DNA of 64,000 bases. It comes from a virus. Taxonomy: Duplodnaviria; Caudoviricetes. A program made the translations under genes and the position numbers. The stretch is taken from positions 6,372-70,371 of the IMG/VR virus record IMGVR_UViG_3300020045_008142; one strand, 5' to 3'. The notes beneath the pieces are model-generated. The model saw only the letters and a list, made by a program, of their open reading frames with translations, was not told where the DNA came from and made no database searches. This document shows positions 25,382-44,000 of the stretch, piece by piece; positions within the stretch are counted from its first letter, which is position 1, and every line of letters starts with the position of its first letter.

Positions 25382-27907
25382 ATGCTTAATCAAGCCAGTA
25401 ATTCAAAACCACCGATTGTTTTATTCTTTTTAAAATCATTTCACGCCGCCCATACTCGAACACTTAAAAACGGTACAGTGGTACAAGTAGGCGCGTACAG
25501 TGATAAACGACTACGCCACGATGCTCAGGCGGTTCATGTTGATCATTCCAAAACCCAAGCCGAGGATAAGGAACATTGGGCGCGATTGCACCAAGAGCAA
25601 CACGTTTTACACCATACCGACAAAGCCGAACATGAGGCGCGTTTAAAGCATCTTGACGGCTTAATCGAACACCACAAGCGACAAGCGGATAACCACGAAA
25701 AACTACGCGATAAAGCCCGTGCAGACGGTGATAGCGTGGCATTGTCTACCCATAACAAGGGATTGACCACACACCACAATAAGACCGCTAAATTTGAAGC
25801 GCGACACGCTAAAACTTCGGCTAAGTTGGCTAAAGTTAATGAGAAGTTAGCGGGTATTCATGCGGCTAAGGAAAAGTTGTGGGCTGGGAGTGGGGCGGTT
25901 GCACTGAAAGAGGGTAATCATCCTTATTACAGAAAACCAAAAGAAGTTGGCAAAGAAATTGCCGATGACATAATTAGCAAAATAACCGTTCCCAGTCAGG
26001 ACAACATCATGAAGCCAGTAACGGGCAATGGCTGGACGGCAGGGCGTGACGCTACCAATAAAAACAATAAAGAGGGTGCGGCTCATGATAAGCAAAAAGC
26101 AATTATCGCTTATTTAAAGGATGGCGGATTATTGACCGATGAAAGCCTTGATGAAATATCTTACATAGGCAACAAATTCATTAGTAATGTAGAGAAACAA
26201 CGCCTTGGATTGGCTAACGATAGTCATAGTGGAGTACCTTATTTCAACCTAACTAGACCGCAAAAACAAGCTGTAAACGATTTTGTAACCGCTAAAATTG
26301 AGCGCACAAAATCCGCTAAAAACTTTCAATCAAGGCTTGCAAAGGAGATAGCAAGGAATAGAAGGCTTCCAACTAACGAACAGGACACCACCAAGCCAGA
26401 CACCGCAAAGCCTAAGCCAGAAGCGGAAGCGGTGAAACCTAAGCAACTGGATGGCGATAATCCAGATTATGAAGAATTTAAAAAGTGGCAACAATCCAAA
26501 AACAATAAACCAGCCTTTAATAAAGATGGTCTAGGCAATGTTAGTAAGGTAAAAACTGCCAAAGGCACGGAAATTGAAACCCGCTTTAAAGTGGTGGACG
26601 CTGGCGATTTGATAACTAGCCATGATAGCAGTGGACACGCAAACCCAAAATTCCCCAGTGATTTACAACCGCGTGACAGATCGAAACAAACCAGTCAAGC
26701 GTGGGTATCGACAACCTCTAAAAACTTGGACGTTGATAAATTGGGCAAAACCAGAGACGCGGCAAATGGTGCGCCGATTGTTGGGAAAGATGGCGTAGTG
26801 GAATCGGGTAATGGTCGAACAATGGCAATTAATCACGCCTATGAAAACGGACACGCGGACGAGTACAAGGCGTGGCTAACCGAAGAAGCGGCAGGTTTTG
26901 GCATTGACCCCGAAAGCATTAAAGGCATGAAAAACCCTGTATTGGTACGCGAAAGACAAACCGATGTAGACCGTTCTATATTCACCAAAGAAGCCAACGA
27001 AGACGACAAAATGGCAATGACAGCCACCGAAAAGGCGCGTAGTGATGGTGACAAAATCAGCGGGGCATTAGTTGAAAAATTGCATGATGGCGATTTACAA
27101 TCAAAAGATAACCGTGATTTTGTACAGGGATTTATCAAAACCCTAAGCAATGCCGAAGCCGCGCAATACTTCACCACCAGCGGCAAATTAACCAAACATA
27201 TTTATGATCGCGTACAGGCGGCAGTATTTGCCCGTGCTTATGATGATGACCGATTGCTTGAATTGATGGTTGATGATGCTAACCCCGATGTTAAAAATAT
27301 CATTAGCGCGTTAAATGGGGCGGCAGGTAACTTTATACAGGCTAGAGATTCAAGCTCACAAGCGCATAAAGCACTTACCAGTACTGTTACCGATGGCATT
27401 AAGGTGTCTATGGATAAGCAAGCGGTTAATCTATTGCTGGACGCTTCTAACGCTATTCTGGAGGCGAAAAACAAAGGGCTAAGCATAGGCGATTATTTAC
27501 GACAAAATAACATTTTTGGTGATGATGAAACGCCTGCGGATGTTGCTGAAATGGCGTTGTTTATCTCAGAGAATAACCGTAGCCCTGCCAAGCTAACCAA
27601 AGTATTTAAAGGTATGGCGGATTCAATTAACAAGCAAGCTGAACACAGTGCAACCACTGATTTAATGGGCGGAATGGACACGTTAGATATTATGGATATT
27701 TTCAGACAAGCCGCTGGTATTGCACCTGTAAAAAGTAACGCGCCTGAACCTGTTAAACCAGCGCAAAGAACAGGCGGCTTTGTTGATATGTTTACAGAAA
27801 CCAGAGGGCAGAAGCGCGACCGTGAAGCATTTGAAGCCAAGAAACCCGCAAAACTCGCTAAATCGCTTCAATCAAGTCCGTTAATCCTGTTTTTCAAAGC
27901 GGCTTAA
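25382..27907 (+). CDS. large polyvalent protein: His-rich leader plus DdrB-like ParB domain
   Basis: GTEIETRFKVVDAGDLITSH...LQPRDR...GAPIVGKDGVVESGNGRTMAI matches the DdrB-ParB domain; leader shared with the 34389 and 40797 genes. Confidence 0.75.
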   Translation: MLNQASNSKPPIVLFFLKSFHAAHTRTLKNGTVVQVGAYSDKRLRHDAQAVHVDHSKTQAEDKEHWARLHQEQHVLHHTDKAEHEARLKHLDGLIEHHKRQADNHEKLRDKARADGDSVALSTHNKGLTTHHNKTAKFEARHAKTSAKLAKVNEKLAGIHAAKEKLWAGSGAVALKEGNHPYYRKPKEVGKEIADDIISKITVPSQDNIMKPVTGNGWTAGRDATNKNNKEGAAHDKQKAIIAYLKDGGLLTDESLDEISYIGNKFISNVEKQRLGLANDSHSGVPYFNLTRPQKQAVNDFVTAKIERTKSAKNFQSRLAKEIARNRRLPTNEQDTTKPDTAKPKPEAEAVKPKQLDGDNPDYEEFKKWQQSKNNKPAFNKDGLGNVSKVKTAKGTEIETRFKVVDAGDLITSHDSSGHANPKFPSDLQPRDRSKQTSQAWVSTTSKNLDVDKLGKTRDAANGAPIVGKDGVVESGNGRTMAINHAYENGHADEYKAWLTEEAAGFGIDPESIKGMKNPVLVRERQTDVDRSIFTKEANEDDKMAMTATEKARSDGDKISGALVEKLHDGDLQSKDNRDFVQGFIKTLSNAEAAQYFTTSGKLTKHIYDRVQAAVFARAYDDDRLLELMVDDANPDVKNIISALNGAAGNFIQARDSSSQAHKALTSTVTDGIKVSMDKQAVNLLLDASNAILEAKNKGLSIGDYLRQNNIFGDDETPADVAEMALFISENNRSPAKLTKVFKGMADSINKQAEHSATTDLMGGMDTLDIMDIFRQAAGIAPVKSNAPEPVKPAQRTGGFVDMFTETRGQKRDREAFEAKKPAKLAKSLQSSPLILFFKAA

Positions 27908-27911
27908 CGTG

Positions 27912-28080
27912 TTATAATGTACCCTGTTGTGGCTGTACGCGGATTAATTACCCGCGTTAAAGCAGATTGAACACCTGTTGCCACAACTCTAATTCGTTCA
28001 AATCACTTTATCCCCGTTCAAGGATTTCAAAATGCAAGATTCTGACGTAGTAGATACACCCACCTATAATTATATTATAG
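27912..28080 (+). pseudogene. orphan moron leader with an abortive ORF
   Basis: TGTTATAAT, structured leader, AAGGATTTCAAAATGCAA start as in the Rha morons; the ORF stops after about 16 codons. Confidence 0.4.
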
Positions 28081-28201
28081 GATGCAGTTAACGAAAGTTA
28101 AGAAAAAAGTATCGGTATAAAATGAAAAAATAATTGAATCGCACAAAATAAACCGCTGGTTTCGTAGATGTTCCAGCGGTTTTTTTTATGCCTGTCATAA
28201 G

Positions 28202-28216
28202 TAGTGATATTAAAAT
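28202..28216 (+). promoter_or_regulatory. variant late promoter TAGTGATA-T-TAAAAT
   Basis: Two mismatches to TCGTGACA with the same spacing to a strong -10; upstream of 28247. Confidence 0.5.
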
Positions 28217-28246
28217 AAGCCATCAATCAATAGGCGGCTTAATCCC

Positions 28247-28984
28247 ATGTTAAAAGTAACTGTTCAAATCGACTTGTCAGAAATGACGCGATCAATTTAT
28301 ACCCAAGTTCAGCAGGCGGTAACGCTCACAGCATTAGAAGGCAAGGCAATCTGGCAGAATGAAATTAAACAAGCCCGCTTGCGTGATGTCGAAAAACAGG
28401 CTTACATGGATTCATTGAAAACTGAAATGACGGGTGATTTTTCAGCGGATTTATTCACTGATTACCGATTAGCAGGTGAAATTGAAAACGGTAGACCACC
28501 ACGCGATTTAAAAAAGAACCTGCTAACGTCTCGCAAAACCCGCGTTTCTAAGAAAGGTCAAAAGTACCTGATTATCCCGTTTAGGCACAATACGCCTGAC
28601 AATAATGCACACGCTAAGGCTATGCCTGTTGACGTTTATAACGAAGCTAAGGCATTGACTAAGAGTCGAGTGCTATCAATGTACACAAGGCAATCAGCAA
28701 CAGGGCATACCGTGCCGCAAGCTTTTTACCAATGGGGCGATAGACTACCTGCTGGATTAACGCCGAAGCTAAAAGACCATCACAAAACCGATATTCATGC
28801 GGGTATGGTGCGCTTTAATACCAGCTCTGGAAAACAAAACTCAAGCCAGTATTTAACATTCAGAGTGATGGGCGAATGGTCAACAGGCTGGATTATTCCC
28901 GCGCAAGCTGGGCTAAATTTAGCCAAGAATACACAGGAACAAATGCAGCCGTTACTGGCTAATTATTTGAAAGGGATTGTTTAG
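28247..28984 (+). CDS. putative neck/tail completion protein
   Basis: IENGRPPRDLKKNLL...KGQKYLIIPFRH...YLTFRVM...W pattern of SPO1-like neck proteins. Confidence 0.55.
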   Translation: MLKVTVQIDLSEMTRSIYTQVQQAVTLTALEGKAIWQNEIKQARLRDVEKQAYMDSLKTEMTGDFSADLFTDYRLAGEIENGRPPRDLKKNLLTSRKTRVSKKGQKYLIIPFRHNTPDNNAHAKAMPVDVYNEAKALTKSRVLSMYTRQSATGHTVPQAFYQWGDRLPAGLTPKLKDHHKTDIHAGMVRFNTSSGKQNSSQYLTFRVMGEWSTGWIIPAQAGLNLAKNTQEQMQPLLANYLKGIV

Positions 28985-30033
28985 GGTAGTTCCCAGCCCA
29001 GTATTCGCACTGCACCCGTTGATGTGGCGATAACAACGGCAATAGATAGTGATTCAAGCCCAAAGGTAAACGGCGTATTAATTGTTACATATTGCGCTCC
29101 CCATGTTGATGCTATCCATAGCACGTTAGAGACTGGCGGCGGGTTAGTGCTTTGCAAGCCCGAATATTGATTGCTGGGTGCGGCAACAACATAAGATGAC
29201 ATAACGCCAGTTTCATCGGTACTACCGACTAATGTGCCACTCACAGAAATAGCAGTAGGTGGCAAAATACCAGCCAGCGATACAGTGGCATACGTTGGGG
29301 TCAATAAATGCCATGTGCCAGTAACACCGCTACACGCAAGCGGTAAATTAGGCGTATTACTACCAATAATTACCCGTGGCTGCACTTTTTTACCATGCTG
29401 TAAAAACCCCAGCGGGTATTTATTCCCTGTACCATCGGTTTTAATCCACCCAACCAGCGCAAAATGCGTGTACCCAGTCGGTAAAGTGGGAGCAGCTCCA
29501 GATAGCGATATTAAACTAGATACCCCGTTAATAGTCGGATTAAAAATAACGTAAATTGCATAATGCTGGTTAGCTGATAACGTGCCAGTATCTAATCCAC
29601 TAATGCCAACTATCGCCGTATTACAGACTAAAACACTATTACTAATCAAAGTGGACGCATTGCCGTTTTTTACAATCAGCTCATCATAGCTAATATTTAC
29701 ACTACTACTTGCACCACCTGTTGAAATAACAAGGTTTTTAGCCTGCCCTGAAACAGCGGGAATACTGCCTGCCAATGCGAAAGCGGAGGCGTGTAAGCCG
29801 TCCACGGTATCAGCATCAAAATTATTACCATGGCCCTGAATAATATCCCCAATTGCCGCCGTTAATTCAGTAATCCGCGCCTTTAGCCATTTGGTGCGAT
29901 TAGCCAGTGCGGCAGGGGCTTTGTTCATGTTAGCGGTTTCATCACCGCCCAACAGCTCACTATCGGTTGTTTCACCCGTGGGGAATAGGTAAACCCCTGT
30001 ATCAAAATTTTCAACTTCTGTGATGTTAGCCAT
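28981..30033 (-). CDS. tail fibre protein
   Basis: N-terminal ANMNKAPAALANRTKWLK baseplate anchor; DADTVDGLHAS; follows the baseplate genes. Confidence 0.75.
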   Translation of the reverse strand: MANITEVENFDTGVYLFPTGETTDSELLGGDETANMNKAPAALANRTKWLKARITELTAAIGDIIQGHGNNFDADTVDGLHASAFALAGSIPAVSGQAKNLVISTGGASSSVNISYDELIVKNGNASTLISNSVLVCNTAIVGISGLDTGTLSANQHYAIYVIFNPTINGVSSLISLSGAAPTLPTGYTHFALVGWIKTDGTGNKYPLGFLQHGKKVQPRVIIGSNTPNLPLACSGVTGTWHLLTPTYATVSLAGILPPTAISVSGTLVGSTDETGVMSSYVVAAPSNQYSGLQSTNPPPVSNVLWIASTWGAQYVTINTPFTFGLESLSIAVVIATSTGAVRILGWELP

Positions 30034-30038
30034 AAATC

Positions 30039-30488
30039 CTACGCATTAAATATAATTGTCCAAGTGCCGCGTAATGAAATACTGTTTGTTTTCATTAGCG
30101 GTGTTCTGTTTTTTCGTGAAAATAGCGTGTTGTTTCCAGACAATAAGCCGAACTCAGCGATATTCATGCCGATAGCGTCCGTTGGGTCGAATCTGAAATG
30201 AAACCTTACGCTTGAGCTGGTCGGATAACTAACCTCGTAAATAGGCACGGTAACGCCACTTGTTAATGCGCTATCGGCAGTGCTAGGGGCGGTTGCATTT
30301 GTACCTACACCAACCTTACTAATTGCCCACAATAACGGATCAGCTCCGCCCGCTGTTTTTGCCTGAATAATTCGACTGTTCAGCACAATTAAATTGCGTT
30401 CATCGAATACTTCAATTAGCTGTTCATTGTCGTAAATTTGATACTGCAATATGCCTATCGGGGCATTAACCGATTCTGTAATATTCAC
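30039..30488 (-). CDS. baseplate-associated structural protein
   Basis: ISKVGVGT...IAEFGLLS...LFSRK...ISLRGTWTI pattern found before tail fibre genes. Confidence 0.6.
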   Translation of the reverse strand: MNITESVNAPIGILQYQIYDNEQLIEVFDERNLIVLNSRIIQAKTAGGADPLLWAISKVGVGTNATAPSTADSALTSGVTVPIYEVSYPTSSSVRFHFRFDPTDAIGMNIAEFGLLSGNNTLFSRKNRTPLMKTNSISLRGTWTIIFNA

Positions 30489-31582
30489 AATGACTCGACT
30501 GTAAGTGATGATGACGCATAAATCGCGCCGTTTGCATGATAAATACCGTTGGCATAGTGCTGTGTTTCGATAGTTAAAACCAACGAATCTGATACCGTGC
30601 CAATATCGGTAATGTGTGACGCTGCGTGAATAGCCCCGTTTGCATGATAAATACCGTTGGCGTAGTGATGTACAATCAAATCAGACACAAAACCATCGGA
30701 GTGCGGCATATAAACATTGTCTACTGTATCGCCACCTGATAATTCAACCTCAAAGCGTGTACCCGCTGATTTAAAGATATTAACAAAAGCGGTTAATCGC
30801 TCGAAAAAGTCATCTAATATTGAATCGCTGAAAATATCAAATACAACAGGATATTTAAACCATGTTGGATTTAATTCGCTATCAATCATTTCTAATTCTA
30901 AGCCAAACTTTTCAAATATTAATATTTCTAATGCAACATTATTACTTTTCGCCCTAATAGTTTCGTAAATAATCCGCGCCCTATAAACATCATCGGTTTC
31001 ATAGCCTGATAATCCACTGCCTAATATCCAATAATTCAAGCTATCAACTATTATTCTTCCTGTACTATCAAATATTTCATTACGCGCTCTTTTGCGTGGA
31101 ATACCGAAGTATTCGCCATAATAATCAAGCCAGTTGCTTTGTGACGAATGAAAATAAAGTTGTTTAAGCATTTCAACAATATCAGCCTTTGCAGTTTCCA
31201 AAACGATTGAAAACATATCAAGGATGACAAATAGCATTGAGCGATAAACGGGTATGGTATGCTCAAATAGCCCTGTAGACGCATCAAATAGACGCACGGA
31301 TTCTAATAATACCTGTGCAGGGTAATTACTATAATCCGTTGAAATAACTGTATCAGGGAATAATGGCGTTAATTGATTAAATACGTTATTAATTGTTAAG
31401 CCAGTCAAACTAATATTAATTACTTCGACATTATCCATCGTGGCAATTAAAAAACTGCCATTTACTTCAAATTGAAGCGTTGCGTTAGCGTGATTAATTA
31501 TTATCGCTGGTTTATCATCGGGGCTTAAATTAAAGCCATCATGAATATAACCTAATAGCTTTCTAAGTAAACGCATAAACAC
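30485..31582 (-). CDS. baseplate wedge protein (P2 gpI-like)
   Basis: WLDYYGEYFGIPRKR...ETDDVYRARI...KSAGT; follows baseplate J. Confidence 0.65.
   Translation of the reverse strand: MFMRLLRKLLGYIHDGFNLSPDDKPAIIINHANATLQFEVNGSFLIATMDNVEVINISLTGLTINNVFNQLTPLFPDTVISTDYSNYPAQVLLESVRLFDASTGLFEHTIPVYRSMLFVILDMFSIVLETAKADIVEMLKQLYFHSSQSNWLDYYGEYFGIPRKRARNEIFDSTGRIIVDSLNYWILGSGLSGYETDDVYRARIIYETIRAKSNNVALEILIFEKFGLELEMIDSELNPTWFKYPVVFDIFSDSILDDFFERLTAFVNIFKSAGTRFEVELSGGDTVDNVYMPHSDGFVSDLIVHHYANGIYHANGAIHAASHITDIGTVSDSLVLTIETQHYANGIYHANGAIYASSSLTVESL
30528..30667. repeat. 32-bp direct repeat (1 mismatch) encoding HYANGIYHANG twice
   Basis: Copies at 30528-30559 and 30636-30667. Confidence 0.85.
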
Positions 31583-32666
31583 CTTTAACGGCTTTACGGT
31601 TTCTATCTATGACAATATCATCGGCGGGTGATGTTATGGTGAAATTAAACACGTTAGGCACGCTCATAACAGCGGCGATAATCTCAGCAAGGATAATTGG
31701 ATTGCCAATTGCCACGCTGTCAATGTAGGCGGTAATAGCATCACTCACTAACGCTAAAACCACGCTTCTGTCTGAGTCGGGCAATAACTCAACAACCGCT
31801 GAAATATTAATTGCTATGTTGGTGGCTGATTCAACCACTACCCGCACACCAGCGGCTTTATAACCTGCAATCTTTGCCCCGTTAATATTGGTATAGCCAT
31901 ATAGGATTTTATTCGCTTCGGCGATTAATTCAGGCGATGCCCCGTTCACGCCGTTGTACAGATAACAGTTGACCACGCCGATAGGGGCTAATGGATCGAT
32001 TAAAAACCATTCAACAACACTGGCTTGTTTAACTTGCTCGATAACAATACCGTTACCATCCACCAACTTAACCGTACTTAGTGCGTACTCTAGCCCTGCG
32101 ATAGTGCTACGCGCTAGGTTCATGACGTAAGAGGTAAACCGTTGCTTGCGTAACTCGCTCGATTCTTCACCACTGCCAAAGGTAAAATTAGGCTGTGCGA
32201 TTGCCGATACTAAACGAACTACGTTAGCGGTGAATGGCGTACCATCGGGAATGACTTTACCAAGCCCTACCAGCGTATCAGTTACCAGCACTTCTGCACT
32301 GGTTTGATTGAGCGCGATAGTTACCTCATTAACACTTTTAAAAGTAGCATCTAAGTCGTTGGCAATAAACGCGGTATTTGCTGGAATGGTGAACGCTGCA
32401 CCTGCGGTAATGGTTAGCGTTATCATGCCCTGACCAGAAGTAGGCTGTAATCGCTCGAAGCCAAACGCCTGATAAAGTGCAACGGGTATGCCCTCTTTCA
32501 AGCCTAGCCACATTTGTTGATACAGTTCTTCAATCTCAACGGCAGGGGCTTCAATCACGGTTCGCATGACTGAACCGATAGTAAAATCAGTTATTCTGTC
32601 TTGCGTAGACGTGGCATAATTTATCATTGATGCCGCTATGGAATTGAAGTCCTTAATTTGGAACAT
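31563..32666 (-). CDS. baseplate J/gp47 family protein
   Basis: MFQIKDFNSIAASMIN...TDFTIGSVMRT...EESSELRKQRF...LARST. Confidence 0.85.
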   Translation of the reverse strand: MFQIKDFNSIAASMINYATSTQDRITDFTIGSVMRTVIEAPAVEIEELYQQMWLGLKEGIPVALYQAFGFERLQPTSGQGMITLTITAGAAFTIPANTAFIANDLDATFKSVNEVTIALNQTSAEVLVTDTLVGLGKVIPDGTPFTANVVRLVSAIAQPNFTFGSGEESSELRKQRFTSYVMNLARSTIAGLEYALSTVKLVDGNGIVIEQVKQASVVEWFLIDPLAPIGVVNCYLYNGVNGASPELIAEANKILYGYTNINGAKIAGYKAAGVRVVVESATNIAINISAVVELLPDSDRSVVLALVSDAITAYIDSVAIGNPIILAEIIAAVMSVPNVFNFTITSPADDIVIDRNRKAVKGVYAFT

Positions 32667-33271
32667 TACTTACCCTTTAACAGCTTGTAATACTTGTTAA
32701 ATAACGCGATACGATCAGTTAAGCCATTCGTGCCGCCGTTGATACGCTTAGTAATCGCGGTAATGGTTTCGTTTCTACCGCCTTGATCTGCAATGTTAAA
32801 TAACGCCTTGGAGTCAAAAAACCACGCCGCCGATAATAGCGGGTATTTTGTGGCAACTAAATCAGGGTTGATAACAACATTATCATCACTAATAAAAGCA
32901 TCCAGACATTCATAACCTGATTTTCCTGTCAGTTGAATATAACCCCTGCCACGGTATAAAAAACCCGCACCACTTGACTCATCACCATTACCCATACGGT
33001 TTGCATAAACAATATTGGCAATGCGCTCAGGCTTACGCGCACAATCATTGGCTAATTGAGCATTAAAATACTTAGGGAATGTTTTTAGTAGTCCACTTGC
33101 TGAATAGTTTAGGTTTTCACGGATAGCCGTAAAACCTGCGCTTTCATGATGGCACTGGCTTAAAAAGTGAGCTAAGCGCAATTCTGTATTAATGTTGAAT
33201 TTAGCCATTACAGCGGGTAATTCAGTCATTACTTTGTCAGGAATAACGCCCTGTAAATATTGAATATCCAT
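32666..33271 (-). CDS. glycoside hydrolase family 19 endolysin
   Basis: RLAHFLSQCHHESAGF...ENLNYSA...YRGRGYIQLTGK...AAWFF...ITKRINGGTNGLTDR. Confidence 0.9.
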   Translation of the reverse strand: MDIQYLQGVIPDKVMTELPAVMAKFNINTELRLAHFLSQCHHESAGFTAIRENLNYSASGLLKTFPKYFNAQLANDCARKPERIANIVYANRMGNGDESSGAGFLYRGRGYIQLTGKSGYECLDAFISDDNVVINPDLVATKYPLLSAAWFFDSKALFNIADQGGRNETITAITKRINGGTNGLTDRIALFNKYYKLLKGK

Positions 33272-33274
33272 AAT

Positions 33275-33490
33275 TTAAAATGAGAATAATGGTTTAGTTG
33301 TTCCGCAGGTTAAGCAAACATTTTGCCGTTCTTTAATGCGTTGTGACCAAGTGTGTTTACATTCAAAATCAGGGCATTTAACCGCATGACTACCTTGACC
33401 TTGCACCTGTCTTTTATTATGTGCGTACCCTGTCGATTGCTTGCAGTTCGGGCGGTCTTTGCATTTATTATTGGTGCAGAAGAATGTCAT
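33275..33490 (-). CDS. small Cys-rich protein
   Basis: 71 aa, first gene after a late promoter motif. Confidence 0.55.
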   Translation of the reverse strand: MTFFCTNNKCKDRPNCKQSTGYAHNKRQVQGQGSHAVKCPDFECKHTWSQRIKERQNVCLTCGTTKPLFSF

Positions 33491-33524
33491 GTGTGCGTGA
33501 TGGGTGCGTTTGTTTGATGGGGTT

Positions 33525-33539
33525 AGTATGGTGTCACGA
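33525..33539 (-). promoter_or_regulatory. late promoter motif TCGTGACA-C-CATACT
   Basis: Exact motif upstream of the lysin-baseplate block. Confidence 0.75.
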
Positions 33540-34388: not shown

Positions 34389-35699
34389 CTAGTCATCCCC
34401 TCTCGAATAAATAGACCAGTCTCTAATAGGCTGGTCTTTTTTTATTTCTGGCTTTATATGCCACCCTCCAGTCTGTACGGCATATCTAAACTCATCATCC
34501 ATTAGAGCGTCTTCATCCGCTGGGTTCTGTTCCATCCACGCATCAATACTTTTTTGTTCTTCGCTTGTTGGTTCACGCATTATTTCTTTTAAATGCGCGT
34601 CTCGCTTTTCACGGCTTGTAATAGACCGATCCGCTTTTGCATCATTTACCATTTTTTGAGCAACATCAGCGTATTCTTTAGGAACGCGCATCGTTTTTGC
34701 TTTGCCGTCATAAACCGCGCCGAACTTTTCTTCAAGCTCGTCCTTAACCGCGTATGTATTGCCAGTTAGCGGGTGCATTAAAGACATTTTAGCCTCCCAA
34801 TTAGCTTTACTCCTCGCCTTTTCTTCGATATGTGGAATTTTATCTTGCAACCAAGTATTAAGCTTTTGACCGCTTAACTTGCCAACCGTCCACTCTTTTG
34901 TTGTGCCATCCCACTTTGCACTTGAAAACTGTTTTTTAAACTTGTCTTTTAAATCAAACGGGATTTTTACACCGAAAGTACCATCTGCACGATGATTAAT
35001 CATTGGGTGCAACGGTGCGTTTTTATCAGCTAATTCTTTAGCTTTTTTTGCCTGTTTCTTAGCTATAGCTTCGGCGGCTTCCCTATCGTTTTCCGCTTTA
35101 AATTTTGCCAGCATTTCTTGGCGTTCTTTATCCTTACTTTGCTGAGGCTGTGTAGGCTTATTCATAGTCTGCCTAGGCTTACTACTAAACCGCTCTCCGA
35201 CTTTATTAACATAATGAGCATGAGCTTTATCGCTATCATCGGTAAGCTTACTAGACCCCTGCACAAAGCCCTCTTTCATTTTGCCAATTTCATTAGTAAT
35301 CAGTTCAGCTCTAGCCAGCATCTTTTCATGACGCATAATCGAGACTTTGAGTTTGATTATCTTGTTATGCGTAATTGTTACAGACTTCTTGTCGCCCTTA
35401 GCTTCATGACCTTCTGCACTTCTTTCGAGTGTTGCCAGTAGTTGCTTTTCAGTGTCGAGTTTACGCTTTAGCGCATGGGCTTCGTAGTGATTAGCCGCGT
35501 GTTGCTCGTGGTGCATATTCTGGAACTTAACCTTATCCACGTCCGACAAGTGGCTAACATCATGATTATGATCGGGTGCGTGTTGGGCGATTTTCTTCAC
35601 GCGTTTATCATAATACGCCGCAATGTTTGTGGTCGTTCCGTCTTTGTTCTTTCTGGTGTGCGCTGCGACAAATGACTTACTTAGAATTATTACTTTCAT
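34389..35699 (-). CDS. leader-family protein: His-rich leader plus two small KDxL...A(W/Y)DG domains
   Basis: First 171 aa align without gaps to the 40797 protein; cargo FDLKDKFKKQFSSAKWDG and GNTYAVKDELEEKFGAVYDG. Confidence 0.75.
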   Translation of the reverse strand: MKVIILSKSFVAAHTRKNKDGTTTNIAAYYDKRVKKIAQHAPDHNHDVSHLSDVDKVKFQNMHHEQHAANHYEAHALKRKLDTEKQLLATLERSAEGHEAKGDKKSVTITHNKIIKLKVSIMRHEKMLARAELITNEIGKMKEGFVQGSSKLTDDSDKAHAHYVNKVGERFSSKPRQTMNKPTQPQQSKDKERQEMLAKFKAENDREAAEAIAKKQAKKAKELADKNAPLHPMINHRADGTFGVKIPFDLKDKFKKQFSSAKWDGTTKEWTVGKLSGQKLNTWLQDKIPHIEEKARSKANWEAKMSLMHPLTGNTYAVKDELEEKFGAVYDGKAKTMRVPKEYADVAQKMVNDAKADRSITSREKRDAHLKEIMREPTSEEQKSIDAWMEQNPADEDALMDDEFRYAVQTGGWHIKPEIKKDQPIRDWSIYSRGDD

Positions 35700-36287: not shown

Positions 36288-36880
36288 TATTTAACGCCTT
36301 TTGATGGTTGAACTCTATCCTGTCCATTGTATTGACCACGCACCGCATAGCTTTTATTCATTGGCACAGGGCTATGCTTGAAAAACTTAACCTGTCCGAT
36401 TTTCATACCTTCGGATAAAATTAGTTTGTGAAATTGGGTGTTGTTTTTTAGCTCTAAAGTAACTTTTCCGTTAAAGCATGGGTCGCACCAACCAGCTAAT
36501 TCATGCCCTAAAAAATTACGCCCTAGACTTGATTTAAGTGAGTATTCAGCACTTAACCAACTTGGCATATTTAAAGTTTCAAAGGTACTGGCAAGTAGCA
36601 CAGTATCAGGCATCATGTACCCTTTACCATCTAACTCAAACGGCTTAGTGAGCTTAATGCTTTCGCCTTTCGCTAAATCAACTTTATCCATGCCTCCGCT
36701 TATTAAATCTTCAACGCAGATAAATTTATCCAGTGTGACATCAATGCTAGTACCATTGACATTAGCAATAGGCGCATCAATAACACCCAAATCAATCAAC
36801 ACGCACAAGTCGTTATAGCTCAATAATCCATTAGGAATAAACCAGCGCGGGTATTTTCGTTTTAGCCAGTTAATCATCAC
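36287..36880 (-). CDS. dcd: dCTP deaminase
   Basis: NGTSIDVTL...LKSSLGR...AGWCDPCFNG...TLEL...GMKIGQ...YNGQ. Confidence 0.85.
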   Translation of the reverse strand: MMINWLKRKYPRWFIPNGLLSYNDLCVLIDLGVIDAPIANVNGTSIDVTLDKFICVEDLISGGMDKVDLAKGESIKLTKPFELDGKGYMMPDTVLLASTFETLNMPSWLSAEYSLKSSLGRNFLGHELAGWCDPCFNGKVTLELKNNTQFHKLILSEGMKIGQVKFFKHSPVPMNKSYAVRGQYNGQDRVQPSKGVK

Positions 36881-38679
36881 GCTACGTCTCCAAACTGGTT
36901 AATTAGGTCGTGTTGTGCGGTTTGTATGCGTTTTATGGCTATGTCGAAAAAGTCTTTTTCTTTCTCTATTCCAATAAACCTAAATCCCTCTGCAATTGCC
37001 GCCTTGCCTGTACTACCACTGCCTGTAAATGGGTCTAAAATAATCCCGTTAGGTGGTGTTATTAATCGGCAAAGGTAGCGCATTAGGTTGTGTGGCTTTA
37101 CGGTTGGATGGTGGTTTTTATTTTCTGGAACGGGTCGTCCTCTCGTGTCATCGCCGCCTGAGTGCGTCCGCTTTGCTATTGTCAACTCCAAACCATCACA
37201 ACCGCTATTCCTGTCTGCTTTACTGGCTTTGGCACAATATAGAAATTGGCTGTGTTCTGACTTTTGTACCACCTTTCCCGCTATGTCCTGTTTGATGTTC
37301 TTTTCTGTGGCATGGCGCACATAACCAAACAATATCGAAAGGCTTTGTGTAGTCGGGATGATGTCTGTGCTTTCCCATACATCCGCAAACGACACAAGGC
37401 TCTGGATTAGGGTAGAGTTTTTGTAGCTTCCAATACAGTCCTGAATAACTTGTAATTCCTCTTTCTTGAAATCCAAGCTCTTTATTCCTACAAGATACAC
37501 CGCAATAAGTGTTCCGCATGAGTCGCACAGGCTCTCCGCAGACCTTACATTTAGGGCGATTTGATTGCCGTGCTTTACCACCACATTCACGCGAGCAATA
37601 AATTCTTTTATTGCTTGGGTAGTCCAGCCATTCTTTTCCGCACAATTTACAAGTATGTTTTTCCATGATGATTCGCCTTTGTTAAATTCAAGGCTAATTA
37701 TATCATTTATACCTGCTTTTGCGTAGTAATCACTGCAAATAAAGCATATTTCATCACTTGGGCAACACTTAAAGAAACGGGATGCGCTGCCGCCGCTGTC
37801 ATTATGTCCAAACGAAACTCTGGGATATTCTTTGCCCTTTGCTACACTAGGCGTTCCACTACAATTCCTAGCATTGGCTTTGCTTGCTTGTGTATCAGGA
37901 AACAAAGCCATAACCTCATCACTACCATCATGAATTAAATTTGCAGGAAATCTGCCCTTGTTTGTATCGGTGTCAGGCGTGGCAACTTGAGAATCTACGC
38001 GCCCCTCTTTTTCACGCCACGCTGAAAAATCCTTTGCGGTTGTGGGAGGTCTTTCAGTACCAACCCGACACCCATCAATATTAATCCCGCCAGTTCCATG
38101 CTTAATAACATTCTTTGCCACCGTCTTTTCAGATAACGGCTTGCGTAATAACAGCCAATTTTCATAAGCTGGTTTTAATGCAGTCCCCCATCCATCCCAC
38201 TGTTTAGCGTTGTCTGTTGCGCTGACTGTTTCAAATGATTCACCTGCCATTGCTCCGTAAGTACCCCGCTCTTTACCGCTTCGTGTATTTATACCAACAA
38301 CCTCACGAACCGCCCCAGCTTCTTTGTCGATTTGCTTACTTATGCTTAGTGATTTTGGAAACCCACTGCCAAAAATGTGAATGATATTATCGCGTAACTC
38401 AAAACCCGCATCCTCACACGCTAACGCCGTCCAGTGTTGCGTCCGTGGCAATGTCCAAACAAGCGCATGACCGCCGTGCTTTAACACTCTATTGCACTCA
38501 GTCATTACCTCAGTCATCCATGCTATCCATTCATCACGCCCGCCCTTGTTTTTATCCCATTCTTTATTCATGAACGCGATACCAGCGGGCGGGTCGGTAA
38601 CAATGCTATCGACTGAATTATCAGCAAGCCCCCGCATAACCTCTAAGCAATCGCCATTAAATAATTGAACTTCCATCAC
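36877..38679 (-). CDS. DNA methyltransferase (N4-C/N6-A type) with a ~177-aa insertion
   Basis: SIVTDPPAG catalytic motif near the N-terminus; HHPTVKP and ILDPFTGSGSTG near the C-terminus; insertion between RFF and YCAKAS. Confidence 0.9.
   Translation of the reverse strand: MMEVQLFNGDCLEVMRGLADNSVDSIVTDPPAGIAFMNKEWDKNKGGRDEWIAWMTEVMTECNRVLKHGGHALVWTLPRTQHWTALACEDAGFELRDNIIHIFGSGFPKSLSISKQIDKEAGAVREVVGINTRSGKERGTYGAMAGESFETVSATDNAKQWDGWGTALKPAYENWLLLRKPLSEKTVAKNVIKHGTGGINIDGCRVGTERPPTTAKDFSAWREKEGRVDSQVATPDTDTNKGRFPANLIHDGSDEVMALFPDTQASKANARNCSGTPSVAKGKEYPRVSFGHNDSGGSASRFFKCCPSDEICFICSDYYAKAGINDIISLEFNKGESSWKNILVNCAEKNGWTTQAIKEFIARVNVVVKHGNQIALNVRSAESLCDSCGTLIAVYLVGIKSLDFKKEELQVIQDCIGSYKNSTLIQSLVSFADVWESTDIIPTTQSLSILFGYVRHATEKNIKQDIAGKVVQKSEHSQFLYCAKASKADRNSGCDGLELTIAKRTHSGGDDTRGRPVPENKNHHPTVKPHNLMRYLCRLITPPNGIILDPFTGSGSTGKAAIAEGFRFIGIEKEKDFFDIAIKRIQTAQHDLINQFGDVA
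37220..37666 (-). CDS. HNH homing endonuclease encoded out of frame inside the methyltransferase
   Basis: Two CxxC...YCSxxC zinc repeats, then CVVCG...HRHHPDYTKPFDIVWLCAPCHRKEH; AAGG upstream of the ATG. Confidence 0.85.
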   Translation of the reverse strand: MEKHTCKLCGKEWLDYPSNKRIYCSRECGGKARQSNRPKCKVCGEPVRLMRNTYCGVSCRNKELGFQERGITSYSGLYWKLQKLYPNPEPCVVCGCMGKHRHHPDYTKPFDIVWLCAPCHRKEHQTGHSGKGGTKVRTQPISILCQSQ

Positions 38680-39824
38680 GCCACCTTACGAGTACCACTA
38701 ACCACCGTAGCAGATAGCGAATTAACAGAGGTTAGATTAGGCGTTATCAGCACGTTATCCATTGAGTTAAGTTGTGCGACTGCTTGCGCGGCATCGGTGG
38801 ACATGGTTAATTTCTCATTTGTTACGGGTAGGTAATATTCCAGTGCGCTATTGCTTTGGAATGTCGAAACAGGACTACCGCCTGCGGTTGATGAACACAA
38901 AGACGCACCAAACAACTGATCGAAGTTAAGCAGGTCTTTAGGTGGTTTAAGGACGTTGTTCAGAATGCAATACAGGTTCATCAATTGCGATTTAGCAAAC
39001 ATCAATTCTGATTTAGTTTGTTGTGCGATTCCGTACACACTGCCCACGGTATCAAGGATATTGTGAGCGGCAAGGGTTAGGCTTGAGGTGGCGTTATACA
39101 GTGGCGTAGTTAGCTCACTTAACGCACCGCTACCCGTTTGTATCAATGATTGCACTTCACGGTTTAGACTGGTTGCCAAGTCCATTACGCCCAACATATC
39201 AGGGGTTAATTCCGTGAAATTGCTGTAAATATCATTGGCAACAACGGTTTTGAAGTCGTCTAAACGATTAAGCGACAAGTCCATAGAATCTAAGCCTAGG
39301 AGTAACGTAGTGGCTTCTGGAAGCTTTAAAAAGTCGGGGGCGTGTAAGTAGTCATCTAACCATAATAGGTTGATTTGATAGTACACCAACAAGGGATTTG
39401 CAATGCTACGTTTAAGCGTGAATGACATCGGGGCAACTACCCATATAAACCCGTCTAAGTCATTATTCAAAATCAGCTTAACTTTGTCGGGGTCGCCTTG
39501 CTTATCGGTTTCGCGCTTGCGTTCAGCGTGCCAATTTAGATAAATGAACTTGTGCAGTTTTATGAAAAATTCCCAGCCGTTAGGGTTCTTACCCGTTCCC
39601 CATCCTGTATGGCCCGAAATTTGCAAGCTTGGAAAACCTTTACCAAAGTTATCAGCAAACGCACCGCCTAGGGTATGGTGAACCGTTAGCCGTGATGTGT
39701 CCTGCCGCGCTAAATCTTCGGGCTTAACAGGTAATAGCATTTCAGAGGGCGGCACTGATCCGTTTGTGTTATGGAACACAAAGCCGATGTTCTTTTTATA
39801 GGCGGAATATTTAGGTACTGTCAT
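38676..39824 (-). CDS. putative baseplate/tail-tube initiator protein
   Basis: LPVKPEDL...TVHHTLGGAFADNFGKG...ISGHTGW...FTLKRS..NPL...YQI; first gene of a baseplate operon. Confidence 0.55.
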   Translation of the reverse strand: MTVPKYSAYKKNIGFVFHNTNGSVPPSEMLLPVKPEDLARQDTSRLTVHHTLGGAFADNFGKGFPSLQISGHTGWGTGKNPNGWEFFIKLHKFIYLNWHAERKRETDKQGDPDKVKLILNNDLDGFIWVVAPMSFTLKRSIANPLLVYYQINLLWLDDYLHAPDFLKLPEATTLLLGLDSMDLSLNRLDDFKTVVANDIYSNFTELTPDMLGVMDLATSLNREVQSLIQTGSGALSELTTPLYNATSSLTLAAHNILDTVGSVYGIAQQTKSELMFAKSQLMNLYCILNNVLKPPKDLLNFDQLFGASLCSSTAGGSPVSTFQSNSALEYYLPVTNEKLTMSTDAAQAVAQLNSMDNVLITPNLTSVNSLSATVVSGTRKVA

Positions 39825-39830
39825 GACTGT

Positions 39831-39845
39831 ATTGTGGTGTCACGA
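39831..39845 (-). promoter_or_regulatory. late promoter motif TCGTGACA-C-CACAAT
   Basis: Exact motif; 6 nt from the ATG at 39824. Confidence 0.75.
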
Positions 39846-39909
39846 CTGTTTAGGAGGATAAAAACCCGCTTTGAGGTTATCGGGGCGGTTTAGGTTTGGT
39901 ATTTGATAA

Positions 39910-40638
39910 TTAATCGACTAATTCAAGCAGCGGCAATCTAGGCTTAGGGTCTTTGTGCTTTTCTCGATACTTTTTGCCGAACTCAATTAATTTTGCTTTG
40001 CGGTCTTTATATTCTAATCCAGCCAAAATGTATGCTTCATCACGTTTACGGACTTGCGATAACATCTCAACTTCATAATTGGTAAGCTCATCTTCACCGC
40101 CTATCTGACACACGCCAACGAAACGCCCAATGACAATAAAATTACATAGCTTTGATTCTGTCATGTAAATATCATCACGCATTTCTTTACCTGTATCAGC
40201 GCGTAATTCTTTGAGCGCGTCCATCATTGGGTAATGTGCAGCACGTTTTGATTTAATTACGGCGGTGCGCTGTGGTTCTGAGTAAAGGCGGTTTATTTCA
40301 TTGATAGCATTGCGAAACTCTTTAATCAGCTTTAGCTTGAACGCAACAACCTTTTTAGTGTTGGTGAAAAGAGTAATTAAAAATGTAGCGTGGTCCTCAT
40401 TAAGTAAAGCCACTTGCGTTTCAGCCCCTTGGTAAGCAGGTAAAATTTCAAATTTGACCTGACCAAGCTCATTAAACTCACTTTCGTACTTTTTAATTAG
40501 TTGAAGTATTGATGTATTGGTTCTTTTGAACTCAATACCTTTTCGCTCAGTTGGGCAGTTTTCAGCAATAATTAAGCTGGTGGTAAAAGCGTGATGACCT
40601 TGGATATTCACTAAATCGGTTCTGGCTTGCGATTGCAT
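39910..40638 (-). CDS. Rha family transcriptional regulator (moron), paralog of 24541-25227
   Basis: AFTTSLIIAE...LNEDHATFLITLFTNT...FKLKLIKEF. Confidence 0.8.
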   Translation of the reverse strand: MQSQARTDLVNIQGHHAFTTSLIIAENCPTERKGIEFKRTNTSILQLIKKYESEFNELGQVKFEILPAYQGAETQVALLNEDHATFLITLFTNTKKVVAFKLKLIKEFRNAINEINRLYSEPQRTAVIKSKRAAHYPMMDALKELRADTGKEMRDDIYMTESKLCNFIVIGRFVGVCQIGGEDELTNYEVEMLSQVRKRDEAYILAGLEYKDRKAKLIEFGKKYREKHKDPKPRLPLLELVD

Positions 40639-40754
40639 TTTAAATCCTTAATTTAAAATAGACCTTGAATGATGGTGTGTCGAAGTCGTCAAGGAAACGA
40701 TTTTCAGCCGCTAAGCCTATCGACACAGTGCAATTATAACACAATCCTATCAAG

Positions 40755-40769
40755 TCGTGACACCATACT
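40755..40769 (+). promoter_or_regulatory. late promoter motif TCGTGACA-C-CATACT
   Basis: Exact motif upstream of 40797. Confidence 0.75.
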
Positions 40770-40796
40770 AGCCCCATCAATTATCAGGAAACCGTC

Positions 40797-43700
40797 ATGA
40801 CACTATTAGTATTCGCCAAAGCCTTTGTTGCCCAACATACCCGTAAAACTAAGAATGGCAACACCATTACCATTCAAGCCTATTATGATAAACGGGTTAA
40901 AAAAGCCGCTGTTCATGCACCCGATCACACACATAACGTAGCGCATTTATCCGATAATGATAAAGCCAAGTTTAGCAATATGCACAAGGAACAGCACGTT
41001 GCCCACTTCTACGAATCACACGCCCTTAGCCGCAAGCTTGACACTGAAAAGCAGTTATTAGCCACGTTGGAACGCTCGGCACAGGGGCATGAAGAACGCG
41101 GCGATAAGAAGTCTGTGATTATCGTACACAATAAGATTTTGAAGCTTAAAACCGTGATTATGCGTCATGAAAAAATGCTTACCCGTGCCAAGATGATTAG
41201 TGAGGGTATCGGCGATATGAAGCATAAAATGGTGGATGGTTCAGGTACGCTTGCGGGTGATGCTGATAAGGAACACGCGGGTTATGTGGCGAAAATGGGG
41301 GAGCGGTTTAAATCGAATAAGCAGGTTAAAGAGGTCGAAGCAGCCAAGCCTAGCGAAAGCCCGAAAGCTACTGAGTCAGATTATCACTACGAAGAAGCGC
41401 AAAAGGCTTACCAGCACAGCAATAGAAGCGGTGCGGCTGTTGGTAGAGAGCATTTTGTTAAGTTCATCAATGAGAATTACGACAAGTTAAACAACAACCT
41501 GAACCCTGAGCAAAAACAAAAGCTGGATAGCGAGTTTATCAACCTTAAAAAAGAATACCTAGAGCAAGAAAAGAATGTTTTACGCACTCGCTCTGGTGTC
41601 GTATCGGCACATATCGCGGGTAATTCAAAGTTCAAACAATCCACTTCTGATAGCACTGAAAATAGACTGGTTTCAACGGGCAATCACTTCGCAGAATGGC
41701 AGGATTTAGCCATTAAAAAAATAGCAGGGGATTTAAAGCAGCTTAGAAATGATGACCAGCTATCCAGCGACACCAATAGCGTAAAAGGCGAAGCAATCAA
41801 GAAAGCTAAAAAGGCGTTAATCAATGATATTAGTTATCTTAATACACCGGGCTGGGATAAAGCATCATCCAGAAAAGGCGTTAAAAAATCACTGGACGCA
41901 TTCAAAGCCATTGATGCTGATGAAGCTAAAAACTACCTTGCTAAAATTGACGCGGCTTTTGTGGAGAATGGCAAAAGCTTAAAACAGGTTGTTGGTGCTA
42001 AAACTGATTTATGGAAAGAGATTGATGCCTTTATGGGTGAAGCTAATAATACCTCACAATCCACCACGCAACCCGCAAAACAAGCACAACATGAATTAGT
42101 CGAACACATCACCCAAAAAGGCAAAACCATCAAGGGCGTTATTCGCAAAGACCTAACCAAGGCACAGGCACAGGCAATTGATCCGTACACCTTTAAAAAA
42201 GACGGTGGTTATTTCATTCGTGAGAAGTATTTAACGGGTGATGTTGGTGAGCAAGCTAAAGCCCCAACACCTCAAACAGAAGCGCAAATCAATAGCCAGA
42301 AAGTCAAGACCGCTAGAGACGCGGCGTTGTCGCACTATAAAGTTTACAGGGACACCGACTATAAGGGTGTTGATGAAAAGCACGTTAAGGCGTTGGTAAA
42401 TGGGTTTTATCGCCCGAACTCAAGCAATGTTTTACATGAGCAATTCAAGGAAATAATGGGCGGCAAGTTTGATGCAAGAAATTATTTGACCTTTGAAAAT
42501 ATGGCATTATTAGAATCCGCTGGATTGATTGATAAGCATGATAATCATTACGATACCAAGCTAACCCGCAAAGGTCAGGATATTTTAAAATCAACTTATG
42601 AGGGGCTAGTACGCGCTAAGGCACAACCTAAAGCCGCTGTAGAGCCTCCTAAGCAATCCACATCAATACTACTCGAAGAACGCGATAAAAACGACCCTAA
42701 CGGCACAATAAGACGCGGATTGTACAAAGAACCCAACGGCGAATATCAAGCCATGACTAGCACACAGTCTAAATACTTCAAGACTGAGAAAGGCGCGAAA
42801 GAGTGGCTAGAGCGTGTTAGTGGAAAGCCTGTAAATGTTGAACCTGTTGCCAAGGAAAAATCACCAGCACAGACGACTTCCACTCAATCAAGAGCAGACA
42901 GCGAAAAATTTAAAAGGGCAGAAAAAAGCGCGGCGGTTAATCGTGAGCGAGGCGCGGCAAGACTTGAAGCGGCGGCGGCTGAGCGCGAGGGTTACGACCA
43001 TTACAACGAAAGCCCGTACCTACAGGAAGAAGCTAGAAAGCTAAGGGCTGGTGCTGAAAAAATAAGGGCTAACAATTCGCAACCCGAACCAGCGGGGGCG
43101 GTTGATAGTGAGAAATCAAAACAAAAAACTAAGTCTAGCGATAAGCCAATAAGCACAAAATCAACCGCAAAACAGGTTATTGCCAAGTTTAAAAAACTTG
43201 GGTTCGTAGCGTCATCGGATGGATTCAACCGAATACGGGTTAGACCAACGCTTGACGGCAGACCATCTAGTAGCCCCGTTTATTATGAAAGACGCGGTGA
43301 AGGTAGCGAATGGAAGATTGATAAATGGAGCGTTCCAGAAACCGATGAATATACTTCGGTTGCCTATCCAGACCAGCATCGTGACGTATTAGCGTTTTTG
43401 GATGCGCATAAAACCATGTGGGGGGATTCAACACCAATGGCAAAATCCCTAATCCTATTCTTCAAATCCACCCCAACCCTAAACCTAAACCAACTGTCAC
43501 ACCGCGCCGCCACATCACCACGCAATCACTTACCCGAACCAAGCCAAGCCATAAACGGACACCTAACCATCAACGGCTTAAACATTGCCATTGAAAACCC
43601 ACAAGGTTCACAGCGTACAGGCGTTGACCGTGACGGTAACGAGTGGGCGCAAACTCTAACTAACCATTATGGTTACATTAAGCAAACCACAGGCGCGGAT

Positions 43701-44000
43701 GATGACGAATTAGACGTTTTTGTTAATCCTGAAATAGAACCCGACTTTAACGGCATGGTGTACGTTGTTAATCAAAAGCACACCGACACAGGCGATTTTG
43801 ACGAACATAAAATTATGCTTGGTTATGATGGTTTTGCCGAAGCGAAACAGGCGTATTTAAGCAATTATGAAGATGGTTGGCAGGGCGTGGATTCAATCGC
43901 TATTATGGACATGGACGGCTTCAAAGAATGGTTAAACGGTGCTGATACCCTACAACCACTGGATATTGATAACAGCAAGGTGATTTATGCTAACGCCTGA
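40797..44000 (+). CDS. large polyvalent protein: His-rich leader plus C-terminal InPase-type domain (DarA-like)
   Basis: NIAIENPQGSQRTGVDRDG...HYGYIKQTTGADDDELDVFV...FDEHKIMLG...AYLSNY...FKEWL. Confidence 0.75.
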   Translation: MTLLVFAKAFVAQHTRKTKNGNTITIQAYYDKRVKKAAVHAPDHTHNVAHLSDNDKAKFSNMHKEQHVAHFYESHALSRKLDTEKQLLATLERSAQGHEERGDKKSVIIVHNKILKLKTVIMRHEKMLTRAKMISEGIGDMKHKMVDGSGTLAGDADKEHAGYVAKMGERFKSNKQVKEVEAAKPSESPKATESDYHYEEAQKAYQHSNRSGAAVGREHFVKFINENYDKLNNNLNPEQKQKLDSEFINLKKEYLEQEKNVLRTRSGVVSAHIAGNSKFKQSTSDSTENRLVSTGNHFAEWQDLAIKKIAGDLKQLRNDDQLSSDTNSVKGEAIKKAKKALINDISYLNTPGWDKASSRKGVKKSLDAFKAIDADEAKNYLAKIDAAFVENGKSLKQVVGAKTDLWKEIDAFMGEANNTSQSTTQPAKQAQHELVEHITQKGKTIKGVIRKDLTKAQAQAIDPYTFKKDGGYFIREKYLTGDVGEQAKAPTPQTEAQINSQKVKTARDAALSHYKVYRDTDYKGVDEKHVKALVNGFYRPNSSNVLHEQFKEIMGGKFDARNYLTFENMALLESAGLIDKHDNHYDTKLTRKGQDILKSTYEGLVRAKAQPKAAVEPPKQSTSILLEERDKNDPNGTIRRGLYKEPNGEYQAMTSTQSKYFKTEKGAKEWLERVSGKPVNVEPVAKEKSPAQTTSTQSRADSEKFKRAEKSAAVNRERGAARLEAAAAEREGYDHYNESPYLQEEARKLRAGAEKIRANNSQPEPAGAVDSEKSKQKTKSSDKPISTKSTAKQVIAKFKKLGFVASSDGFNRIRVRPTLDGRPSSSPVYYERRGEGSEWKIDKWSVPETDEYTSVAYPDQHRDVLAFLDAHKTMWGDSTPMAKSLILFFKSTPTLNLNQLSHRAATSPRNHLPEPSQAINGHLTINGLNIAIENPQGSQRTGVDRDGNEWAQTLTNHYGYIKQTTGADDDELDVFVNPEIEPDFNGMVYVVNQKHTDTGDFDEHKIMLGYDGFAEAKQAYLSNYEDGWQGVDSIAIMDMDGFKEWLNGADTLQPLDIDNSKVIYANA

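Follow-up and report, generated by a model that had tools for sequence, protein, structure and literature searches.

Three late genes with a common leader

The 64-kb stretch of DNA analyzed here (the window) is part of a 70.4-kb virus contig from IMG/VR (IMGVR_UViG_3300020045_008142), estimated to be 76% complete, that represents a temperate myovirus. Our subject is an N-terminal leader shared by three of its proteins, P0001, P0002, and P0003. An earlier note on this DNA had described three open reading frames that begin with a common His-rich leader, and their translations show that these exist as described. Each leader opens with a tag, a hydrophobic run that ends in lysine followed by serine or alanine (K-[S/A]), with a cut predicted between the two residues. 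The three genes and their parts are as follows.

25382-27907, plus strand: P0001, 841 amino acids (aa), with the tag at residues 1-18 (predicted cut K18-S19), a subtype-B leader to about residue 180, and a ddrB-ParB domain at residues 394-525
25382-25435, plus strand: hydrophobic run and K-S site of P0001, predicted to form an N-terminal propeptide
27854-27907, plus strand: mirrored C-terminal element of P0001 (residues 825-841), consisting of K827-S828, a spacer, a hydrophobic run, K839-A840 (within K-A-A), and the stop
34389-35699, minus strand: P0002, 436 aa, with the tag at residues 1-8 (K8-S9) and a subtype-A leader at 9-175
40797-44000, plus strand: P0003, 1067 aa, with the tag at residues 1-8 (K8-A9), a subtype-A leader at 9-175, DUF1391 at 635-673, a double site at 881-891, and an InPase domain at 920-1047
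43437-43469, plus strand: internal junction of P0003 (residues 881-891), a hydrophobic run between two K-S sites just upstream of the InPase unit

The leaders of P0002 and P0003 align without gaps (118 of 188 identities by BLASTP, E 2e-74), and where the earlier note had estimated about 115 identities over 171 aa, a direct count at the N-terminus gives exactly 115 of 171, with identity falling to background level after about residue 180. P0001 is more distant, as had been claimed, with an identity of 34% to the P0003 leader (E 1e-14) and 36% to that of P0002 (E 2e-11) in alignments that start at its residue 13. Outside the leader, no pair among the three proteins aligns better than E ~0.1 by BLASTP, in agreement with the claim that the cargoes are unrelated. 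The leaders are rich in histidine (9-13%, versus ~2% in the remainder of each protein) and basic (isoelectric point 9.5-9.8). At the nucleotide level those of P0002 and P0003 are 63% identical, and because synonymous sites are saturated (proportion of synonymous differences, pS, 0.83) while the nonsynonymous proportion (pN) is 0.25, the two copies are old and have been kept by purifying selection on the protein. Throughout the 70-kb genome the tag is found at a true open reading frame start only in these three genes.

Two simpler origins of the common N-terminus were ruled out. A recent DNA repeat is incompatible with the 63% nucleotide identity and the synonymous saturation, and no long repeat joins the leaders. 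A secretion signal or lipoprotein signal is likewise rejected, as the hydrophobic run is only ~5 residues long, has no charged n-region, and does not resemble the window's three N-termini that are true signal or membrane sequences.

The cargo of P0001, whose ATG is preceded by an AGGA ribosome-binding site, includes the ddrB-ParB domain (Pfam, E 3e-39) and another region that matches phrog_5143, and the InPase domain of P0003 is recognized at E 5e-47. The cargo of P0002 matches no Pfam or PHROG family, with no PHROG match in the whole protein, and gives only weak DUF5710/HARP-like leads (Pfam; Atlas structure search, template modeling score <0.35). The internal junction of P0003 has the appearance of a fusion between a C-terminal element and the N-terminal tag of a following unit, and InPase is found on its own behind this tag in gp28 of the cultured phage PHB04 and in the protein P0049. 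An in-frame ATG lies four codons ahead of the hydrophobic run of the junction (window 43437-43448), which is why the InPase unit might additionally be produced as a tagged protein of its own.

The 10-mer GTCGTGACAC, with one mismatch at most, occurs 10 times versus 1.9 times expected, each copy is located just upstream of an operon start, and the box has a GTGAC core in common with the -22 box of the annotated late promoters of P1. The elements near the leader genes are listed here.

25289-25332, plus strand: 44-nt upstream element, 82% identical to 40703-40746
25339-25346, plus strand: TCGTGACA box upstream of the P0001 gene, with two mismatches to the 10-mer, read directly
39837-39846, minus strand: late-promoter-like box that heads the five-gene operon ending with the P0002 gene
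40754-40763, plus strand: late-promoter-like box GTCGTGACAC that precedes the start codon of P0003 by 34 nt

The earlier proposal that late promoter motifs precede all three genes therefore holds directly for the gene at 40797 and in degenerate form for that at 25382, and fails for the gene at 35699, which is the fifth of a tightly packed operon. That the leader genes belong to the late regulon is nevertheless supported. The P0001 gene looks monocistronic because a stem-loop followed by a T-run, of the terminator type, is present downstream (~28152-28190). It lies within a 340-nt non-coding stretch (27908-28246) that also has an earlier, imperfect hairpin. The P0002 gene closes an operon with those for a tail-tube initiator and a baseplate protein, and the P0003 gene is followed by tail-fibre-like and virion structural genes. 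The P0001 and P0003 genes are each part of a duplicated unit (24541-25382 and 39910-40797) that comprises a Rha-like regulator, a divergent intergenic region with the 44-nt element, and the leader gene; the two regulators are divergent and paralogous (37% identical).

Leader anatomy, relatives, and cargo repertoire

Alignments and an AlphaFold model divide the module into three parts, namely the hydrophobic run with its closing K-[S/A], a beta-hairpin of basic character, and a His-rich helical hairpin. In the leader model (mean predicted local distance difference test, pLDDT, of 82.5) residues 1-7 form a disordered tip, which is closed by a nearly invariant lysine and then serine or alanine. 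The beta-hairpin spans residues ~10-30 and is followed by a poorly predicted loop to ~52, and the antiparallel helices at 53-101 and 104-145 (pLDDT ~97), a confidently predicted 45-residue hairpin, carry invariant His, Glu, and Gln positions. There are two subtypes, that of P0002 and P0003 (A) and that of P0001 (B). The shared His-rich leader of the earlier note is thus real, but what is widely shared is a core of the first 8-40 residues (hydrophobic run, K-[S/A], and beta-hairpin) that also occurs without the His-rich helices, and the first ~40 residues are repeated inside long proteins as well. The tip alone directly precedes InPase in the protein P0049 and at residues 881-891 of P0003. A mirrored version of the element, in which a K-[S/A] site and a short spacer lead into a hydrophobic run and basic residues ahead of the stop, closes P0001, P0016, P0006, P0027, and gp28 of the cultured phage PHB04. 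Separately, a 204-aa protein at window 1275-1889 that has no family match carries an internal K-A motif with a hydrophobic run near residue 139, and its C-terminus (K-A, hydrophobic run, stop) resembles the C-terminal element of the cargo proteins.

The leader is an undescribed N-terminal module that defines a real family. Residues 1-175 have no Pfam match at E ≤0.1 and no PHROG match. As the earlier note had suggested, a profile of the leader was built and the attached cargoes were cataloged. Searched against 1.84 billion cluster representatives, the profile of the three leaders finds 62 of them, 43 below E 1e-10, in proteins of 45-2132 aa and mostly at the N-terminus. Among the 57 homologues scanned with Pfam, the cargoes are InPase (9), LPD1 (8), ART-PolyVal (4), PBECR1 (4), ddrB-ParB (3), and RadC (3), together with Zeta toxin, PBECR3, LPD3, DUF5710, MuF_C, DarA_C, and an SNF2-type helicase, and leader-only proteins of ~200 aa exist too. 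At least 19 different Pfam cargo families are found behind the leader, in line with the proposed modular tag with swappable payloads, and all are of the polyvalent injected-effector repertoire. Iyer et al. (2017) defined this domain set as that of the polyvalent proteins, which they proposed to be packed into capsids and injected with the phage DNA (PMC5512222).

The family is known only from metagenomes. Searches for it by tblastn with P0002 and the 39-aa tag against 50,697 phage records found none in cultured phages, megablast of the region returned nothing, a pattern scan of 185,579 species genomes gave no relative, and IMG/VR yielded only three further loci. Five other leader-bearing contigs all encode homologues of the portal, sheath, tube, or tape measure of this phage. 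Each related contig has two to three tagged units, and in two of them (L004 and L005) the leader genes are located just upstream of portal or MuF-like genes. The L004 contig has both leader subtypes fused in one 1930-aa protein, and L005 encodes a 1696-aa polyprotein (913-6003) with leaders at residue 1 and at ~1112, the second after a zincin HExxH region; in these polyproteins every unit opens with a hydrophobic run and K-S. The L005 polyprotein could be processed by both its own peptidase and the head protease.

The common N-terminus might instead be a trace of duplication and mosaic recombination among late cytoplasmic proteins that are never packaged, the likeness of their K-[S/A] sites being coincidental. 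The duplicated unit of Rha-like regulator, intergenic region, and leader gene fits such a history, as do the free shuffling of modules in phage genomes and the small size of the family, which is confined to one lineage. We consider this explanation improbable. It does not account for the conservation of the protein in the face of synonymous saturation, for the presence of the same leader, usually N-terminal or opening a unit within a polyprotein, on at least 19 unrelated cargo families, for cargoes that are those of injected effectors, or for the enrichment of the motif, far above chance, in the four scaffold proteins described below.

Lysine sites in the head proteins and in a cultured phage

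The virion module of this phage provides a second line of evidence. Its relevant genes are listed below, and the window also encodes baseplate genes, Rha/Ant-type regulators, and replication genes.

5153-6538, minus strand: major capsid protein of the SPO1/phi812 type, with a predicted maturation site at K12-A13 that is homologous to K24-S25 of the phi812 type
6551-7096, minus strand: scaffold-like acidic protein P0066, 181 aa, with six hydrophobic-K-S-hydrophobic motifs
7086-7943, minus strand: head maturation protease (phrog_1028), with a K-S site of its own at residue 192, after which comes a capsid-protein-like peptide
11605-14346: portal, 913 aa
14399-18073: tape measure with SLT domain
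21679-23406: sheath
48915-50405: large terminase

The nearest relatives of the capsid protein (42-45% identity) are those of Morganella phage Mecenats66, Pseudomonas phage Touem01, and Bordetella phage PHB04, which are ~90-kb myoviruses of Gram-negative hosts, and more remote matches are to SPO1 and phi812-type capsids. The protease is assigned by its phrog_1028 match and matches no Pfam peptidase family. The portal appears to be a fusion, as its residues 1-507 and 552-889 are separate genes in L005; the second part (552-889) is also a separate gene in L004, and Pfam showed the portal domain alone.

The motif hydrophobic-hydrophobic-K-[S/A]-hydrophobic, with the expectation taken from shuffled sequences, is strongly enriched in the scaffold proteins of all four phages, with six sites observed versus 0.07 expected in this window, three versus 0.31 in Mecenats66, five versus 0.18 in PHB04, and five versus 0.11 in Touem01. 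It is present once in the protease of the window and at the starts of the leader proteins, and the proteases of Mecenats66, PHB04, and Touem01 have at least one site each. In Mecenats66 and PHB04 the capsid protein carries K-[S/A] immediately ahead of a conserved segment (L-x-A-G-Y in Mecenats66). The full-length capsid protein of the phi812 type (PDB 5lii, 463 aa) has K24-S25 at this position, the deposited chain 9row (439 aa) begins at S25, and the two align to the K12-A13 site of the capsid protein described here. The literature on the capsid cleavage site of A511/phi812 yielded nothing usable. Because of the motif statistics in scaffolds and proteases and the start of the 9row chain at S25, there is good indirect evidence that the proteases of this head lineage cut after lysine that precedes serine or alanine.

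Residues ~190-225 of the protease (window 7265-7370) contain, after the K-S site, a second K-A site and then a near copy of the N-terminal peptide of the capsid protein, and PHROG 1028 also matches residues 9-46 of the capsid protein. PHB04 and Touem01 share this arrangement.

The short tag also occurs in the cultured phage PHB04 (NC_047861), where it is located on a helicase (gp25), a DarB-like methylase (gp27), an InPase (gp28), and an HD phosphohydrolase (gp32), all of which are encoded between the portal and protease genes. The gp27 and gp32 proteins have the beta-hairpin as well, and gp28 and gp34 end with the mirrored element. The region at 7099-21745 of PHB04 accordingly has five genes between portal and protease with the short tag or the mirrored C-terminal element. 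The published papers on PHB04 and Mecenats66 report no virion proteomics, and PHB04 is a practical test system.

A site in the tail has to be weighed against these head contexts. The leader proteins could be tail or ejection components whose helical hairpin resides in the tail lumen, the baseplate, or a trans-envelope conduit, so that the cargo would be delivered from the tail. Such a location would suit the P0002 gene, with its tail-tube initiator and baseplate neighbors, the P0003 gene ahead of tail-fibre-like genes, and the P0005 gene, which adjoins the sheath and tube genes, and the weak structural neighbors of the leader, none of them significant, include tape-measure and tail proteins. 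However, these proteins are marked by the motif of the prohead protease, which acts in the head, the tagged genes adjoin portal or head genes in PHB04, L004, and L005, and relatives of InPase and ddrB-ParB are fused to portal or MuF proteins or are known head proteins. We therefore give the tail little credence.

The main rival, which we consider unlikely, is that the leader is not an address to the capsid but a working domain of the mature effectors, with for example a DNA-binding, metal-binding, or oligomerizing function in the infected cell; any loading would then have another basis, for instance the MuF-like part of the portal. The basic character of the leader and the invariant H63, E65, Q66, and H67, which resemble a metal site, are what such a domain might show; its 175 residues far exceed the known targeting peptides (10-30 aa), the helical hairpin is confidently predicted as a folded unit, and the leader-only proteins would be easily understood. 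What this leaves unexplained is the disordered tip with K-[S/A] that directly precedes InPase without the helices and sometimes without the beta-hairpin, as well as the mirrored C-terminal element and the match to the cleavage motif of scaffold and capsid proteins. It is in part compatible with packaging of the leader proteins in the head, as the helices could be kept on the mature cargo.

A proposed route into the head

We propose, with moderate confidence, that P0001, P0002, and P0003 are late polyvalent-type effectors that share an N-terminal module for loading into the prohead and trimming by the head protease. In the series of events that we infer, from docking and packaging to cleavage, retention, and injection, the terminal hydrophobic run (~5 residues, at the N-terminus and sometimes mirrored at the C-terminus) would dock the protein to the interior of the assembling scaffold or capsid, and the prohead protease would cut after the lysine in hydrophobic-x-K-[S/A], a motif at which it would also cut the scaffold, the capsid protein, and its own chain. 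This cut would release the docking peptide, and where units are fused, as in P0003, it would also split off ones such as InPase. The basic beta-hairpin and the His-rich helical hairpin would remain on the mature cargo and probably hold it on the packaged DNA until the two exit together. The location in the head is argued from the protease motif on the leader proteins, since the prohead protease acts inside the prohead. A bolder version, which we put forward tentatively and do not expect to hold in full, is that myoviruses with SPO1/phi812-type heads use a portable, mirror-symmetric code in which a pentapeptide at either end docks the protein and is clipped at K-[S/A], and the His-rich hairpin tethers the effector to DNA and governs its exit.

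Several observations weigh against this proposal. The phage is uncultured and its contig is only ~76% complete, and in this genome the leader genes are found away from the head module, one of them within a baseplate operon and another ahead of tail-fibre-like genes. Plain common descent would equally confine the family to one virion lineage. The cleavage specificity is derived from motif statistics and the start of a deposited PDB chain, and K-[S/A] could be conserved for the folding of the hairpin instead of for cleavage. The enrichment of the mirrored C-terminal element is modest (9 of 57 leader homologues versus 2 of 50 other proteins), and a cut at the last site of the P0001 C-terminus would free two residues only. 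In PDB and BFVD, Foldseek matched the leader to generic helical hairpins only, none of them below E 0.1. Semi-tryptic mass spectrometry of virions, which the earlier note suggested as a check, would be blind to a cut after lysine because trypsin cuts there too.

The closest functional parallel is with the capsid targeting sequences of T4 (IPI-III and Alt; Mullaney and Black, reviewed in PMC9026906), in which a short N-terminal peptide is common to unrelated, injected, and partly anti-restriction proteins with swappable payloads. In T4, gp21 cleaves the 10-aa targeting sequence, and Alt, which bears a propeptide at each end (PMC9026906), is trimmed at both, as is predicted for P0001. At the end of the T4 tag is a site for the prohead protease, which uses such sites on scaffold and capsid proteins as well, and the same pattern is seen here in that the hydrophobic run with K-[S/A] starts all three proteins and the motif is also enriched in the scaffold, the protease, and the capsid protein, the cut being predicted. 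The two systems nevertheless differ, as there is no sequence similarity between them, gp21 cuts after glutamate (L/I-x-E) whereas the predicted cut here is after lysine, and nothing of the ~10-aa T4 tag is retained whereas a 160-aa basic, His-rich domain would stay on the cargo. Moreover, the T4 system is experimentally proven, while this one is known from sequence comparison. The leader tag thus appears to work like the T4 tag without being a member of the T4 tag family.

The Dar system of P1 (PMC9024508, PMC12810830) is a further parallel. P1 is also a temperate myovirus with a late regulon and a GTGAC-core box, and it packages large anti-restriction proteins, among them DarB, whose 30 N-terminal residues are sufficient to target it to the capsid (PMC9024508). 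The ddrB-ParB domain of P0001 is also present in P1 DdrB, and DarA_C is found in the leader homologue P0033. However, the P1 capsid protein is cut at E120-S121, and the virion module described here is of the SPO1/phi812 type and not P1-like. A kinship of the tag with P1 was ruled out by direct reading of the N-termini of P1 DarB, DdrB, DdrA, DarA, Hdf, and Ulx, which have neither tag nor hairpin; the P1 authors themselves found no consensus among the Dar N-termini (PMC9024508).

With the polyvalent proteins (PMC5512222) the leader proteins have in common the cargo domains (InPase, ddrB-ParB, LPD1/3, ART-PolyVal, PBECR, RadC, MuF_C, and DarA_C), the late or structural gene context, and the predicted processing into units. 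Polyvalent proteins are defined by two or more domains of disparate activity from this repertoire in one polypeptide. P0003 carries InPase, DUF1391, and the leader, P0001 carries ddrB-ParB and the phrog_5143 region, and P0002 has no recognized cargo domain; leader homologues carry up to four domains of the repertoire. As for their location among late or virion genes, there are the late boxes and the baseplate, tail, and head neighbors in the window and in five related contigs. The difference is that in the published scheme processing is mainly by built-in zincin metallopeptidases and addressing is by MuF or portal fusions (PMC5512222), and the leader matches none of the LPD families deposited in Pfam. 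The MuF-fused effectors (SPP1 gp7-like) resemble the leader proteins in having an N-terminal addressing domain followed by a variable toxin or enzyme cargo in a head-module context. Yet P0001, P0002, and P0003 have no MuF domain in Pfam or PHROG, MuF_C is present in only 1 of 57 leader homologues, and a MuF-like piece appears to be attached to the portal of this phage.

To our knowledge, T4 is the only phage in which the choice of proteins to pack and inject is understood in detail, and for P1 it is understood in part. The leader offers a sequence-readable signal, present on many unrelated enzymes of the anti-defense type and tied to a predicted protease code. What is new, in our best reading of these comparisons, is that the leader is unlike the T4 sequences or the P1 DarB signal in sequence and would carry a large retained domain, and yet may be functionally like both. 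If the proposal is true, a simple profile search would find injected effectors in this phage lineage, the cutting of large polyvalent proteins into working units would be explained, and there would be a handle for loading chosen proteins into the heads of a lineage that has cultured members. Should the portable, mirror-symmetric code also prove true, it would amount to a sequence-readable rule by which everything that such phages inject could be found and engineered.

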